Notes under the pieces: generated by a model | Seen by the model: the letters and a program-made list of their open reading frames with translations, nothing else | What the model was told of the DNA's origin: nothing | Databases searched by the model: none | Shown: piece by piece, positions 39,763 to 45,651 of the stretch | Numbering within the stretch: the first letter of the stretch is position 1 | How the letters are laid out: each line of letters opens with the position of its first letter | Translations under genes and position numbers: made by a program | Assembly (NCBI GenBank): GCA_965223265.1 | Contig: OZ244999.1 | Location: 5,088,001-5,152,000 of the forward strand | Length of the DNA: 64,000 bases | Source of the DNA: Planctomycetota bacterium | GTDB taxonomy: Bacteria; Planctomycetota; UBA8108; SXIK01 | Direction: 5' to 3'

Positions 39763-42700
39763 CTACACCTGCTCCATCGCGATGCGCTCGCGTCTCGCAA
39801 CCGAACGCGCATGCAGGATGATCAGCACGGGGCTGGCGACAAACACTGAGGAGTAGGTTCCTGCGAGGATGCCGATCAGGAAGATGAAAGCAAAGCCGCT
39901 GACCGCCTCGGTCGCAAAGAAGAGCAGGACGAAGGTCACACACAGCGTCGTCAAGGATGTCCAGAGTGTACGCGTCAAAGTCTGGTTGATGCTCAGATTA
40001 ACGATGTCTTTGAAATCCATCCGCTTCTTGGCAAACAACTGCATGTTTTCGCGGATGCGGTCAAAGATGACGATCGTGTCGTTGATCGAGTAACCAACAA
40101 TCGTAAGAATCGCCGCCAGCTCGGCGAGATTGATCTTCACAGAAAACGTGCCGCCGAAGAAGTAGTCGACCATGGCGACAAGTCCGATGCTGATGAGAAT
40201 ATCGTGAACGAGCGCCACAATGGCGGCGACACCGAAGATGAACTCAAAGCGCAGCGAAACGTAGAAGATGATCCCGAGCATCGAGATGAAAAGTGCGACA
40301 ATCGCATCCTGCTGAAGCGTCGAGGCGACCTTAGGCCCGACGGTCGCAACTTCGGAAAACGCCTCCGACAGTTCAAAAAGTCGATCGTTCCCGGCCGCTG
40401 TGGCGCCTGGTCCGTGACTATGAAAAAAATCTGTGAACGCCTCCTCGACGACGGTTTGCGGCGGTGATTCGTTCGACCGAAGGGCCTGGACCGGCGGCTG
40501 ATAGGCGTTGGTGACAAACTGATAGCGTTTGACACCGTCGGTGTCCGACACCAGAGACACTGACTCGACCGAAATCCCTGTGAAGCTTCCCACCGGCGTC
40601 CCTGACTCCGACAGGCGTGGCTGCAGATCCGGATTCGCAGCGAACGCGGCGTTGAGTCGATCCTTAAAGTCCTCTTCGGTGAGGTCCGCTTCGACTCGGA
40701 GAAAATTGACGTCCATCGTCAGATAGAAGTTGCCTTCGCTGCCAGCGTCGGTCGCCAACTTCCACTCCCGCAACGGAATGAGCGGCGGCAGGAGCAAGTT
40801 GTCCGCGCGCAGCATGTCTTCGAGTGCTGAACGGACGCGCTGGGCCGGTCCAATCTGCGACCCCGCGTCGATAGTGCCGTCTGCGACACTCGGCGCTGCG
40901 GAGATGCTGGTGCCCGCATCCGCAGGGGGCGTTGAGGCGCTCTGCGAGGTCGCCGCGTCTTCCGCCGGTGCTGATTCCGACTCTTGGGCATTCGCCGCCG
41001 GCAAACCGCCATGCCCCTCGCTGGCTCGCGTTCGCAGCGCGAACGCACTCGCCTCGTCGGACGATCCGGCCAAGGTCTGTAGAGTCCAGTCGCGGAAGAG
41101 CTCTGGCTGGGCGGTGGCAAGCGTGGCGATCTTGCTCTTCATGTCTGCGACTGAAATCGGGCGACTCAGCTGCATGTTAATGCGCGCGCCACCCGTGAAA
41201 TCGATGCCGTAGTTGTTGCTGCCGCGCGCGATCACGAGGACCCAAGTGGCGACGATCACAAACACCGAGCCCGTCAGAAAACGCCTCTGCACGCGCGGGA
41301 AGTTGATGTTGGGCGTCTCGAAGGCCTGAAGCATACGAAACGATTTGACGATCCCGACGTTGACGAGGAAGCTGACGATGAGTCGAGTGACAAAGATCGC
41401 TGTGATGAAGCTGATCACGATGCCGCTGATGAGCGTGACGGCGAATCCTTTGACGGGTCCGGTGCCGAACTGAAAGAGGACCATGCCAGTGATGAACGTC
41501 GTTAGGTTGGCATCAAAGATGACCCAAAAGGCGCGTCGATAGCCCGACGCGAGGGCCTGCAAGACCGGCTTCCCCTTCTTCAGCTCCTCGCGCACACGCT
41601 CGAAAATGAGAATGTTGGCATCCACGGCCATACCGACGGTGAGCAGAATGCCCGCCATGCCTGGGAGCGTGAGCGTCTGGCGAAAGCACGCGACGTAGGT
41701 GAGGATAAAGAAGATGTTCAGCACCAGCGCGAAATTCGCCACGAGGCCGCCGGCGAGGTAGTAGACCGCCATGATCAGCATGACGATCGCAAGGGCGCAC
41801 AAAACCGCCTGCAAGCTCGACTGAATTGAGTCTTGCCCCAAGACCGACCCGACGGTGCTCTCAGAGACAAGCGCCGGTTTGGCCGGCAAGCTGCCGCCGC
41901 GAAGGATCGTGACAATGCCGATGACATCGTCCTGTGTGAACTGCCCAGAGATCTCGCCGCTGGCGCCGATGCGCTCGCTGATGTTCGCGACCTGAATGAT
42001 GTCATTGTCGAGCGTGATCGCAAGGCCGCGGTCGACATTGCTGCCAGTCAAGTTGCCGAATTGAAAGGCGCCTTCACCGTCGAACTCGAAAAACACCGCC
42101 GGTCCGTATGTGCGCTGGCTACGAGTTGGGCTGACGCGCTTGAGGTGGCTACCGCTCACGATCTTGTCGGGCGAGTTCTCAAGCGTGCGCTTGATCGGGC
42201 GGCCGGCTTCGTTCCTCTGGGGCTGGAATCCGGCGGCTGGGTTGTCGGGATCCTTCTCGACGACGACGCGAACGACGTAGAGCGGGCGTTCCGGGCGCGG
42301 TCCCTGAAAGTTCGGGTCGGCGACTTTCTTCTCAACCCACTCGCGCTCAGCGTTGACGTAAGCCAGCTCTTCGCGCTCGATTTGAGCTTGCCGCTCGGGC
42401 GTCTGCTCGGACTCGATCGCCTCCAATCGAAACTCAAGCGTGCCGGCCGTTTCGATCTGCTGCTTGATGGCGCCGACCGACTGGGCGTCCTGGCCGGGGA
42501 GCTGAACGACCAGCTGATCCCGCCCCTGAACCGCGACGCTGATGTCTTTGAGTCCGTAGACGTTCAGGCGATTCGTGATGATGTCCTTCACTTCGCCGGC
42601 GACCTTGTCGCGCTCAGACTCAACGCGGCTGAGATCGATCGAGTAGGTCAGCTCGGAGCCGCCGACGAGGTCAATGCCGTACTGGAGTCGGGTTTCGGCG

Positions 42701-42768
42701 AGAATCCACACCCCGAGTCCGATCACGAGTGCGAGTAGGGCGAAGCCCCAGCGTGTTCTCTTGTACAT
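39763..42768 (-). CDS. secDF: Fused protein translocase subunit SecDF
   Basis: GIDLVGG, GMAVDANILIFERVREE, GPVKGFA, GIDFTGG and GYSINDTIVIFDRIRE. Confidence 0.95.
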   Translation of the reverse strand: MYKRTRWGFALLALVIGLGVWILAETRLQYGIDLVGGSELTYSIDLSRVESERDKVAGEVKDIITNRLNVYGLKDISVAVQGRDQLVVQLPGQDAQSVGAIKQQIETAGTLEFRLEAIESEQTPERQAQIEREELAYVNAEREWVEKKVADPNFQGPRPERPLYVVRVVVEKDPDNPAAGFQPQRNEAGRPIKRTLENSPDKIVSGSHLKRVSPTRSQRTYGPAVFFEFDGEGAFQFGNLTGSNVDRGLAITLDNDIIQVANISERIGASGEISGQFTQDDVIGIVTILRGGSLPAKPALVSESTVGSVLGQDSIQSSLQAVLCALAIVMLIMAVYYLAGGLVANFALVLNIFFILTYVACFRQTLTLPGMAGILLTVGMAVDANILIFERVREELKKGKPVLQALASGYRRAFWVIFDANLTTFITGMVLFQFGTGPVKGFAVTLISGIVISFITAIFVTRLIVSFLVNVGIVKSFRMLQAFETPNINFPRVQRRFLTGSVFVIVATWVLVIARGSNNYGIDFTGGARINMQLSRPISVADMKSKIATLATAQPELFRDWTLQTLAGSSDEASAFALRTRASEGHGGLPAANAQESESAPAEDAATSQSASTPPADAGTSISAAPSVADGTIDAGSQIGPAQRVRSALEDMLRADNLLLPPLIPLREWKLATDAGSEGNFYLTMDVNFLRVEADLTEEDFKDRLNAAFAANPDLQPRLSESGTPVGSFTGISVESVSLVSDTDGVKRYQFVTNAYQPPVQALRSNESPPQTVVEEAFTDFFHSHGPGATAAGNDRLFELSEAFSEVATVGPKVASTLQQDAIVALFISMLGIIFYVSLRFEFIFGVAAIVALVHDILISIGLVAMVDYFFGGTFSVKINLAELAAILTIVGYSINDTIVIFDRIRENMQLFAKKRMDFKDIVNLSINQTLTRTLWTSLTTLCVTFVLLFFATEAVSGFAFIFLIGILAGTYSSVFVASPVLIILHARSVARRERIAMEQV

Positions 42769-42952
42769 ATCCTGGTCCTCTCTTGAAGTTCCGCGATGCC
42801 CCGAACGCGTGAATCGTCGCTTTTATCGGCGCTCACGCGCTCGCGCGTTGAAGAAAAATCTCACGCGCAGGCACTCTTCACCTGTGCGCGTTCTTCCGCC
42901 ACGACTCGATCGTTTTGGCGTCCGTTCGATGAGCAGTCCGTGCCGCGAACGG

Positions 42953-43402
42953 CTACATGGACGTCGCGTGCGGAGGAGCGCGCGGGGCGCGGAGGAGCGT
43001 CGCGGGGTCTTCGCCCGCGCTCCCAAGGGGCGGCAGAGTCCGACCGCGCCAAAGAGCCAGAGGCGGTCGCTGCTGGCCGGGCGTCGCGCGGTGCGCCGCG
43101 TGCACGAGACCGTCGCCCTCTCGGGTCGGACGGCGTTCGACCACATCGCGACTCGCCGCGTTGCAAGCGTCGGCCAGCGGCTGGCCGGGCGGGTTCTGGC
43201 TGCCGCCCCGCGGTGACGGCTCTTCCTCATGCGTTGCGTCGGGCGGCGCCGCGGCCGTCAGGCTCCCCCACCCACCGACAACACAGCTACCGAGGAAACC
43301 CAGCACCATCGGCAAGAGTGCCGCCACGCGACGACGTCGTCGCTCCGCGGCAGAGGTCGCGTCGAAATCAGCGCTGTGGTTTTTGGTGGTGGTGCAGCTC
43401 AT
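42953..43402 (-). CDS. Putative secDF upstream arrest peptide (secretion monitor) ending LLRAPRAPPHATSM
   Basis: 149 aa from ATG 43402; RRRRR plus hydrophobic signal-like segment, disordered linker, RAPP 5 codons before the stop; directly upstream of secDF. Confidence 0.65.
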   Translation of the reverse strand: MSCTTTKNHSADFDATSAAERRRRRVAALLPMVLGFLGSCVVGGWGSLTAAAPPDATHEEEPSPRGGSQNPPGQPLADACNAASRDVVERRPTREGDGLVHAAHRATPGQQRPPLALWRGRTLPPLGSAGEDPATLLRAPRAPPHATSM

Positions 43403-43480: not shown

Positions 43481-43510
43481 TGAATTCGTCTGAATTCGTC
43501 TGAATTCGTC
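43481..43510. repeat. 10-bp tandem repeat x3 (TGAATTCGTC)
   Basis: Three perfect copies between yajC and the RAPP ORF. Confidence 0.85.
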
Positions 43511-43532: not shown

Positions 43533-43955
43533 TCACTGCTGCGCTCGCTGCTCGATCTCACGCTGCGTGTGGTCGTCAGGAGCCTCGGCACCATCCGGCA
43601 TCACTTCGAGGATCGCAGCTTTGACGAAGCGGACCTTGACGTCCTTATCTTTGTCGATCTGCACGACAACGTCGTTGCCGTCGACGCGCTTGACCACGCC
43701 CCGCATGCCGCCCGTCGTGATGACTGAGTCACCCTTCTTGACCGCCGCGACCATCGCTTCGCGCGCCTTGCGTTTCTTTGATTCTGGTCGGAGGATCAGG
43801 AACCAAAAAACGACGCACATCAGTGCGATCGGAACGAACATGCCCCCCAGCGGTCCCACCGGCTGCTGCGCTCCGGTCTCCTCTGCGGCTTTGACGGCCG
43901 CTTCACCCGCGGCTCCTGTCTCCTGCGCCCAGAAAATCACCAACCGAGTCAACAT
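43533..43955 (-). CDS. yajC: Preprotein translocase subunit YajC
   Basis: FWFLILRPESKKRK and VKKGDSVITTGGMRG; tgt-yajC-secDF order. Confidence 0.93.
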   Translation of the reverse strand: MLTRLVIFWAQETGAAGEAAVKAAEETGAQQPVGPLGGMFVPIALMCVVFWFLILRPESKKRKAREAMVAAVKKGDSVITTGGMRGVVKRVDGNDVVVQIDKDKDVKVRFVKAAILEVMPDGAEAPDDHTQREIEQRAQQ

Positions 43956-44324: not shown

Positions 44325-44500
44325 CAACAGGTGAAAAAGTCATTCGGCTGAAAAACCGGCCTCTCCACGCCCAGATCAGCCGCGGCGAGCCTCGCCGTGT
44401 ATGAGAAGAGGGCTCGAAGATTACCTGCGTTTGCCGCGGCCGATCTGGACGCGAAGCGACCAGTTTTCAACTCGAAGCACCTTTTCAACGGGGCTGTCAA
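44325..44500. mobile_element. Palindromic MITE-like repeat, copy 3 (inverted, more diverged)
   Basis: Reverse complement of copies 1 and 2 with a shorter loop; its end overlaps the tgt TGA stop. Confidence 0.75.
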
Positions 44501-45651
44501 CTCTCGCCGCGCGAGCGCTCCTGTCGCCACAGGCGGCAGAAGTCGCCGAAGGTTCCGCCGCGGATCGCCGCGCGCATACGCTCGATGAGATCGTGGTAGT
44601 AGGTCAGGTTGTGGAGCGTCCCGAGGATCGGCGCCAACATCTCGCCGCGACCGTAGAGGTGTCGTAAATAAGCCCGTGTCACATGCTTACAGGTATAGCA
44701 GCGGCATCCAGGGAGAACAGGTGAGAAGTCGTCGGCAAATCGTTGATTGCGCAGATTGAGACTGCCGGTCGCACCAAAGAGGCTGGCGTTGCGGGCGTGT
44801 CGGGTCGGCATCACACAGTCGAACAGGTCGACGCCAAGGGCCACCATGTCGACGAGGTCGTCCGGCGTGCCGACTCCCATGAGGTAACGCGGACGTTCTC
44901 GCGGCAGCTGTGGTGCAGTCACGGCGACCACGCGACGCATCGCTTCTGGCGTCTCCCCGACGGAGACCCCGCCGATCGCGTAGCCGGCGAAGTCGAGACT
45001 CTTGAGCTCAGCGCTGGACTGCAGCCTCAGATCGTCGAAGCGCCCCCCCTGGACGATCCCGAAAAGCGCTTGCTCGGCTGGCCGCCGGTGCGCCGCCAAG
45101 CTGCGCTGCGCCCAGCGGCTGGTGCGCTCGACGGCGCGCTCGACCTCCCGCCGCGGCGCGTCGTAGGGCGGGCATTCGTCGAACGCCATAATGATGTCCG
45201 CACCGAGATCATTCTGGATCTCCACCGAACGCTCAGGAGTCAACCGCAGCAGCTCACCGTCGACGTGGGACCGAAACGTGACGCCGTCATCGTCAATTCG
45301 GTTGAGCGTCGACAGGCTATAGACCTGATATCCACCGCTGTCGGTGAGGATGGGGCGGTCCCAGCCCATAAAAGCGTGGAGGCCACCGGCGCGCCGAACC
45401 AAGTCGCTGCCGGGACGAAGTGCGAGGTGGTAGGTGTTCGCCAGAAGGATTTCGGTGCCGCACTCGCGCAGGTCGCGCGGCGTCATCCCTTTGACGCTCG
45501 CCTGGGTGCCGACCGGCATGAAAACTGGCGTTTCGACAGGCCCATGCGGCAATTCCAACCTGCCGCAGCGCGCACCGCAGGTGGAATCTTCCGCCTCGAG
45601 GCGGAACTCAAACCCACTCACGACTCTGCCCGAATCGTACGCCGCAGCCAC
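44497..45651 (-). CDS. tgt: tRNA-guanine transglycosylase
   Basis: TPVFMPVGTQ, NTYHL, TDSGGYQV, GIVQGG, DCVMPTR and CRCYTC. Confidence 0.97.
   Translation of the reverse strand: MAAAYDSGRVVSGFEFRLEAEDSTCGARCGRLELPHGPVETPVFMPVGTQASVKGMTPRDLRECGTEILLANTYHLALRPGSDLVRRAGGLHAFMGWDRPILTDSGGYQVYSLSTLNRIDDDGVTFRSHVDGELLRLTPERSVEIQNDLGADIIMAFDECPPYDAPRREVERAVERTSRWAQRSLAAHRRPAEQALFGIVQGGRFDDLRLQSSAELKSLDFAGYAIGGVSVGETPEAMRRVVAVTAPQLPRERPRYLMGVGTPDDLVDMVALGVDLFDCVMPTRHARNASLFGATGSLNLRNQRFADDFSPVLPGCRCYTCKHVTRAYLRHLYGRGEMLAPILGTLHNLTYYHDLIERMRAAIRGGTFGDFCRLWRQERSRGES

Follow-up and report, generated by a model that had tools for sequence, protein, structure and literature searches.

A small upstream open reading frame (uORF) of 149 codons separates yajC from secDF in the 64,000-nucleotide stretch of a Planctomycetota genome analysed here (the window; contig OZ244999.1, positions 5,088,001 to 5,152,000), and we consider it probable that this uORF is a translated secDF leader peptide acting as a secretion "monitoring substrate". 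Four sequence criteria have been published for the search for arrest peptides that serve as Sec or YidC monitoring substrates (PMC10987492, PMC7897499; citations of these two papers, and below of PMC10951233 and PMC12992588, refer to excerpts), and the uORF shows each of them in the form typical of the RAPP-like RQH class. It is a small unassigned open reading frame (ORF) of less than 300 amino acids (aa) that precedes a sec gene on the same strand (149 aa, 184 nucleotides (nt) upstream of secDF). By hydropathy only, it carries an N-terminal signal or transmembrane segment. Its C-terminal RAPP-like motif is kept within the bacterial order, for which at least three species are demanded, and was found in 15 of 15 syntenic uORFs. 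Finally, more than 30 residues lie between the localisation signal and the arrest point, namely 99 in the window peptide and 99–128 across the 15.

The uORF and its putative arrest motif

The ORF list and Pfam searches gave the gene order tgt, yajC, uORF, secDF on the minus strand of the window, with the following features:

42953–43402, minus strand: uORF, 149 codons plus stop, candidate Sec-monitoring arrest peptide (ATG at 43402, TAG at 42953–42955)
43259–43342, minus strand: targeting signal, RRRRR (residues 21–25) and a 23-residue hydrophobic segment VAALLPMVLGFLGSCVVGGWGSL (residues 26–48), from translation and hydropathy
42986–43258, minus strand: linker rich in Pro, Gly, Ala and Arg, of low complexity and poorly conserved (residues 49–139; no invariant column in alignment A2, described below)
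42971–42985, minus strand: putative arrest motif P140-R141-A142-P143-P144 (R141, P143 and P144 invariant in 15/15 syntenic ORFs)
42970–43007, minus strand: two-copy tandem repeat of period 19 with one indel (Tandem Repeats Finder: 2.0 copies, 94% matches, score 69)
42769–42952, minus strand: untranslated spacer of 184 nt from the uORF stop to the secDF start, strongly structured according to folding
42776–42783, minus strand: Shine-Dalgarno (SD)-like sequence AGAGAGGA, 7 nt 5′ of the secDF ATG
39763–42768, minus strand: fused secDF, 1001 aa, the presumed regulated gene (Pfam SecD_SecF_C, E 3e-74; SecDF_P1_head; Sec_GG; SecD_1st)
43533–43955, minus strand: yajC, 140 aa (Pfam YajC PF02699, E 9.2e-25)
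44497–45651, minus strand: tgt, upstream of yajC

The peptide opens with a 20-residue polar stretch ahead of RRRRR. The best 19-residue Kyte-Doolittle window, at residues 26–44, reaches 2.04 and the n-region is net positive; in all 15 members of the family the corresponding window scores at least 1.73 and the n-region is again net positive. Hydropathy and charge mark the N-terminus as either a signal peptide or a signal anchor of N-in orientation. The 99 residues given above are counted from the end of the best hydrophobic window to the proline expected in the P site. The C-terminus reads LRAPRAPPHATSM followed by the stop codon, with the RAPP codons CGC GCT CCT CCG at 42982–42971 and PRAPP five residues before the stop.

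An earlier note on this DNA had described a 149-aa ORF with a basic patch, a hydrophobic segment, a linker and a C-terminal RAPP at 42971–42982, inserted at the yajC–secD junction of a planctomycete. The sequence confirms each of these elements. The flanking genes are YajC and a fused SecDF by Pfam, the yajC stop and the secDF start lie 764 nt apart in the window compared with −4 to 202 nt in 19 class-level relatives with a recognised yajC, and the relatives are labelled Planctomycetota or Planctomycetia. The same note had stressed a doubled RAP-RAPP. This doubling is present in the sequence, but its first arginine, R138, is conserved in no relative; it is thus a peculiarity of the window genome and not a feature of the family, whose core is P-R-[A/G]-P-P.

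In every RQH member that was tested, toeprinting located the third motif residue in the P site (PMC10987492), and on this basis the predicted stall has the Pro143 codon (42976–42974) in the P site and the Pro144 codon (42973–42971) in the A site. RAPP-type arrest leaves the A-site tRNA accommodated without formation of the peptide bond (PMC10951233). Less common codons are used at Ala142 (GCT, 15%) and Pro143 (CCT, 13.6% of Pro codons in long ORFs). The tandem repeat at 42970–43007 spans the last linker codons and the RAPP codons, and each copy holds CUCCUCCGC; the indel sets the two copies in different frames, so that one encodes PATLLR and the other APRAPP.

The invariant di-proline and the use of the less common CCT for the P-site proline in 11 of the 15 members would also suit a leader peptide that senses the capacity to translate proline (Pro-tRNA or EF-P status) instead of secretion. 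Such a sensor would need neither an invariant arginine nor a conserved targeting segment, and the gene downstream is a secretion component. Moreover, RAPP and RGPP were reported to give the most robust arrest, refractory to EF-P, and the RAPP arrests of ApdA and ApdP behave in this way (PMC12992588). We therefore regard a proline sensor as very unlikely.

As to the coding status of the uORF, its G+C content by codon position is 0.75/0.65/0.77, with the minimum at position 2 and the maximum at position 3, as in secDF, yajC and tgt. Codon-usage log-odds trained on four neighbouring genes were positive in the uORF frame alone among the six frames, which is weak evidence by itself. Searches of the peptide against Pfam, NCBIfam and PDB sequences gave no match. 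The frame is open upstream to 43594 and contains an alternative in-frame GTG 9 codons 5′ of the ATG. The ATG at 43402 is the likeliest start, since the preceding "gagtagat" resembles the context 5′ of the ATG in the ORFs of relatives. The 130 nt that separate the uORF start from the yajC stop also contain three perfect tandem copies of a 10-nt unit (TGAATTCGTC, plus strand) at 43481–43510.

The gene downstream appears to encode the only SecDF of the window genome: a search with PF02355 gave strong matches to the two halves of this ORF alone. The remaining matches (E ≥ 1e-8) fall in open frames of 1030–1280 aa, which we take to be other transporters.

Conservation, distribution and chance occurrence

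A single-sequence search of 40 related genomes with the 149-aa peptide returned a best foreign E value of 0.0046, at a place other than the secDF locus. We therefore located secDF by its first 300 residues, which matched in 39 of 41 genomes, and read the DNA upstream; homologues of the uORF surfaced through synteny first and by profile afterwards. The order to which the window genome belongs comprises 21 species-level genomes in three families. As carriers we counted loci with an ORF between yajC and secDF that has an N-terminal hydrophobic segment and R-A-P-P or R-G-P-P 2–5 residues before the stop. By this definition 15 of the 17 readable yajC–secDF junctions of the order carry the uORF, with 3 of 3 loci in family f1 (G000, G001, G002) and 12 of 12 in the three genera of family f2; among class-level relatives it occurs in 0 of 20 loci. 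Four genomes were left unscored, G009 because its contig ends 166 nt upstream of secDF, G014 because the match was unlinked to yajC, and G003 and G019 because no secDF was found (80% and 62% complete).

Alignment A2 of the 15 syntenic peptides, from seven genera, shows how little of the sequence is retained. Identity to the window peptide is 17–29%, and invariance is limited to the columns M1, R25 (immediately ahead of the hydrophobic segment), R141, P143 and P144, with alanine or glycine at position 142. The residue before the motif arginine is proline in the six sequences outside genus g5, while g5 has P-V-R-G-P-P. The motif codons vary synonymously (Arg CGC/CGA/CGG; Ala GCT/GCC/GCG or Gly GGC/GGT; first Pro CCT/CCG/CCA; second Pro CCG/CCT/CCC/CCA), indicating that the amino acids of the motif are what is kept. 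In five close g5 genomes, third-position differences are 2–3 times as frequent as those at first or second positions, and in 9 of 10 pairs the synonymous codon changes are at least as numerous as the non-synonymous ones (the closest pair has 9 versus 13). In the two shifted frames, by contrast, non-synonymous changes dominate 3- to 13-fold. Judged by this substitution pattern across codon positions and frames, the uORF is real and under coding selection in the relatives.

The peptide could instead be an ordinary small membrane or secreted protein, perhaps an accessory subunit of SecDF or YajC, in which PR[AG]PP is functional in the mature protein and causes no stalling. Its conserved N-terminal membrane segment and its place in an operon of membrane translocon subunits are compatible with such a role, and RAPP-like motifs in most of the tested cellular proteins do not stall (PMC10987492). 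Nevertheless, no residue is invariant from the membrane segment to the last ~6 residues, and the intervening sequence is of low complexity; the linker thus shows the pattern of a spacer and not that of a folded or interacting domain. In addition, every member has its motif 2–5 residues before the stop codon, the rest of the proteome avoids RAPP and RGPP (see below), and library, PDB and profile searches yielded no family, structure or homologue outside the clade. An accessory protein is hence improbable.

Wider searches returned the same group of organisms. A scan guided by SecDF alignment, with one genome per GTDB species, covered 80 loci; the uORF was present in 14, all matching the uORFs of members of the order, and in none of the other 66, which were mostly from Verrucomicrobiota and 6 of which had less than 400 nt upstream. 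Profile A2 searched against 5.8 billion proteins gave 35 further metagenomic homologues, all of the g5 type, and in 32 of these RGPP and 2 further residues form the C-terminus. The other three, singletons on short contigs or small clusters, have deviating C-termini; in one of them a frameshift is suggested, as its C-terminus corresponds to the adjacent reading frame. When 1.84 billion cluster representatives were searched exhaustively with the profile, 13 proteins were returned at E ≤ 0.001, all of this family, 12 of them with the C-terminal motif, including three new variants that end in SPRAPPRA, APRAPPGE and APRGPPFVTA. In a six-frame profile search of 401 Planctomycetota genomes, the matches were confined to members of f1 and f2 (8, including the window genome), apart from one weak match (E 8.1e-4) interrupted by 3 in-frame stops. 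Within the range of these searches, the uORF family is restricted to a clade of two families of one planctomycete order.

For phylogenetic placement, a maximum-likelihood tree was calculated from the N-terminal 300 residues of SecDF (32 rows; G006 was left out owing to a truncated SecDF match). The 14 carriers form one side of a branch with moderate support (86/79), sister to family f3. As the carriers group together, a single gain of the uORF fits the tree, which is unrooted and derived from one protein. One of the two f3 loci (L046, genome G005), which has no uORF, contains an extra SecD-like ORF of 376 aa between tgt and yajC, besides the full secDF after yajC.

The frequency of the motif by chance was estimated in the window genome (9.18 Mb, 61% G+C). 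Of 38,217 open frames with 100 codons or more, 27 (0.07%) have R[AG]PP within 5 residues of the stop, and five have PR[AG]PP. These figures bear on the possibility that the uORF is a chance open frame in GC-rich intergenic DNA with a coincidental RAPP. The region does have 72% G+C and long open frames on both strands. However, frame, design and motif are kept across seven genera with synonymous variation, the substitutions follow a coding-type pattern and the chance rate is low, all of which makes a coincidence extremely unlikely. The earlier note had itself warned that RAPP might be frequent by chance in GC-rich frames, a concern that neither the rate of 0.07% nor the conservation in syntenic ORFs supports, and the check that it had proposed, a search of relatives for conserved ORFs with a signal and R[AG]PP ahead of secDF, came out positive in 15 of 17 readable loci.

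We also scanned the genome for the whole design, that is, a frame of 50–320 codons with a hydrophobic segment, a spacer of at least 30 residues and R[AG]PP or RAGP no more than 12 residues from the stop, with the start of an ORF of at least 250 aa no more than 300 nt further downstream. Three places were found in the 9.18 Mb, one of them the uORF before secDF. The second (G000:C1:3778815-3779327, minus strand; L148) has a hydrophobic segment, ends in GTPRAPPVC and is separated by 98 nt from a downstream 468-aa ORF that has a signal-like N-terminus and matches no Pfam family; judging from its layout, it may be another RAPP-type leader peptide. The third (G000:C1:6992940-6993446, plus strand; L147) ends in QARAPPDAIGLS and is followed after 79 nt by the ORF of a 496-aa outer-membrane efflux protein (Pfam OEP, E 1.7e-43). 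Small ORFs with RAPP or RGPP ahead of functionally diverse genes were described in a 2025 paper. Separately, five copies of a repeated element (G000:C1 near 7451532, 8303162, 8370767, 8977996 and 9141518) contain a frame with a hydrophobic stretch that ends in SCATRGPPWR, with no gene close downstream; this element is probably a dispersed repeat or mobile element and not a regulator.

Both motifs are depleted in the 3,882 long ORFs of the window genome, with observed/expected ratios of 0.45 for RAPP and 0.22 for RGPP, while the reversed words PPAR and PPGR gave 0.92 and 1.01, and AAPP gave 1.67. The depletion fits a sensitivity of this organism's ribosomes to the motif. Avoidance of RAPP and RGPP has been reported across bacterial proteomes, with Planctomycetota among those plotted (PMC12992588).

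The spacer and the proposed link to secDF expression

The features described above can be combined into a model. The arginine patch and the hydrophobic segment would target the nascent chain to the Sec translocon. At R141-A142-P143, with Pro144-tRNA in the A site, the peptide bond would fail to form and the ribosome would pause five codons before the stop. About 99 residues would then separate the targeting signal from the peptidyl-transferase centre, so that the signal should lie outside the ribosome at the pause. Active translocation would pull on the chain and release the pause, which would last when export capacity is low, and a ribosome parked at the 3′ end of the uORF could raise the expression of secDF through a rearrangement of the structured 184-nt spacer. 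That the ribosome stalls at the motif, that force releases the stall and that secDF is induced we infer by analogy from published work on RAPP peptides, and the coupling of the stall to secDF is the weakest step.

Folding of 42745–43010 gave a minimum free energy (MFE) of −115.6 kcal/mol (z = −3.09), and 0 of 200 shuffled sequences folded as well. According to the MFE structure, the codons of the arrest site are paired with the spacer, each of the two CUCCUCCGC copies with a separate GCGGA box (42895–42899 and 42790–42794). The closing helices stop a few nt 5′ of the SD-like AGAGAGGA, and secDF's ribosome-binding site (RBS) lies inside a 4-bp hairpin only. Most relatives have a purine-rich site of the AGGA type ahead of the start of secDF; G001 has GAGG instead.

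A number of observations speak against the model. The targeting signal was judged from hydropathy alone. The uORF start codon has no strong Shine-Dalgarno sequence and its position is uncertain. Family f3 (G005 and G007) has the uORF in 0 of 2 loci, with yajC ending 153 and 41 nt before secDF, and published work stresses that RAPP alone is insufficient for arrest. With regard to the RNA, forcing the ribosome footprint (−15 to +15 around the P site) to be unpaired raised the predicted accessibility of the RBS only from 0.55 to 0.65 in the window, and the gain was about 0 to 0.14 in the same calculation for 10 representative loci. Complementarity between footprint and RBS ranked best in G002 only (7 bp) and ninth in G001; in the other eight loci it ranked 27th–52nd of 65–102 windows. 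The RNAalifold consensus of nine g5 spacers likewise has no helix over the RBS.

Taken together, constraint folding, parsing of MFE helices, RNAalifold and duplex ranking revealed no consistent helix that masks the RBS, and for this reason the link to secDF expression is one that we infer. In silico folding of GC-rich RNA is a weak test, and a masking structure may therefore have been missed. A promoter and terminator scan found none in the spacer, with three terminator-like matches inside yajC or the uORF; Rfam at E ≤ 1 likewise had none in the spacer and two sub-threshold matches outside it.

These results bear on a further explanation, in which the peptide stalls at R[AG]PP but senses insertion of the SRP/YidC type, or acts via termination or mRNA stability, unlike the SecM model. 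In most relatives acidic residues follow the hydrophobic segment and a small-x-small cleavage site is lacking (LPLLLDDRGE in g5), which is more like a signal anchor. The missing conserved helix over the RBS and the length of the spacer (69–184 nt), together with its significant structure in the window, also speak for this explanation. On the other hand, the spacer has no site resembling an intrinsic terminator, the poor resolving power of GC-rich folding applies here too, and the only uDF_RQH case tested works via a stem-loop over the SD (PMC10987492). This explanation is accordingly unlikely, and we prefer the leader peptide that monitors Sec-dependent export.

One candidate mechanism was rejected. 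The CCU CCN proline codons could provide a CCUCC that pairs with the secDF SD, an arrangement that holds in G002 (7 bp) and partially in G000 (5 bp) and G001 (6 bp, with neighbouring codons). It fails in G012, G016 and G017, and such anti-SD pairing is hence no general mechanism. Among the g5 spacers (L019, L020, L033, L037, L049, L021, L039, L038, L042) we noted a conserved hairpin, with three pairs changed on both sides, that lies off the RBS; the blocks CCGTCGA and GATTTAYCC and the RBS AAGGAAAGA are conserved as well.

Comparison with known arrest peptides

The RQH family comprises RAPP-like uORFs before secA or secDF, grouped by order, with 11 secDF groups and additional orphans (Fujiwara et al. 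2024, PMC10987492). Its uDF_RQH groups share with the window uORF the position before secDF, the small size, the N-terminal signal, the long spacer and an R-A/G-P-P near the stop; as in the window family, the motif is retained across an order of bacteria and the remainder of the sequence has diverged. One member, uDF_RQH_WSZJ01, is a planctomycete RAPP uORF before secDF (R104APP, fAP > 0.9) that stalls ribosomes in vitro (PMC10987492), and a planctomycete uORF of this kind is therefore already known. WSZJ01 also belongs to Planctomycetota, in GTDB class MHYJ01 (PMC10987492, Supplementary Data 1), and has ~110 aa versus 136–177 aa in the window family; the two were compared by description. The relatives of the window bear the names UBA1146, UBA8108 and UBA1662, of which UBA1146 is an order and UBA8108 a class in the genome list of PMC10987492, suggesting that the window belongs to a different class from WSZJ01.

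The window group has possibly been catalogued already. NCBI lists some of the g5 peptides as hypothetical proteins, and the annotation-based pipeline of PMC10987492 may thus well have caught this order. The readable supplements of that paper, which exclude the table of secDF uORFs, contain neither the C-terminal peptide of the window nor a uDF group named after UBA1146.

ApdP of Alphaproteobacteria and ApdA of Actinobacteriota are likewise RAPP arrest peptides upstream of secDF (Sakiyama et al. 2021, PMC7897499; Morici et al. 2024, PMC10951233). They come from other phyla, and no homology to them was detected; the 13 matches of the family profile all belong to its own clade, and ApdA and ApdP are set apart on this ground without direct sequence comparison. 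The earlier note had taken the uORF for a probable member of the class of secretion monitors, naming ApdA and ApdP among others. Its sequence-level predictions held, with RQH as the class that fits, whereas a homologue of ApdA or ApdP the uORF is not. Furthermore, ApdA and ApdP precede a presumably secondary SecDF2, while the window uORF precedes the sole SecDF in a conserved tgt–yajC–secDF cluster.

SecM of Gammaproteobacteria resembles the window uORF in its signal sequence, its C-terminal Arg/Pro arrest motif and the sec gene downstream on the same transcript. The SecM motif is FxxxxWIxxxxGIRAGP (PMC10987492); the window uORF, with RAPP before secDF, is no member of this family. SecM has RAGP with glycine in the P site and lies upstream of secA with a stem-loop over the secA SD, and no such stem is evident at the window locus. 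No homology of the uORF to SecM or to VemP from Vibrio was detected, and the arrest sequence of VemP is not known to be related to RAPP. VemP is similar in that it regulates a secDF operon according to SecDF activity, but it forms its own family in the published classification and controls a second, alternative SecDF2 (PMC10987492).

A more far-reaching interpretation, which we offer tentatively and consider rather doubtful, is that the uORF represents an arrest-peptide family of independent origin, acquired a single time by the ancestor of two families in an uncultured order of planctomycetes, that controls the sole housekeeping SecDF without a SecM-type RBS helix. The parked ribosome might melt the base of a multi-branched spacer fold or affect transcription or mRNA fate, and the 19-nt duplication of the window, with two CUCCUCCGC boxes facing two GCGGAA boxes, might be part of the switch. 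With no obvious masking helix, the locus is a place to seek another way of coupling a stalled ribosome to a gene.

The sister family f3, which has no uORF, offers a natural comparison with and without it inside one order. The R-A-P-P and R-G-P-P variants, with their very different upstream sequences, form a natural series that could test which determinants beyond the motif govern stalling. For annotation, such uORFs are easily missed or labelled "hypothetical". The uORFs described here add a well-supported, clade-restricted family to the RAPP-like arrest peptides, for which a repeated origin from a short "seed" motif is assumed. Since the peptide precedes the only SecDF, unlike ApdA, ApdP and VemP, it would place a core export component under feedback control.

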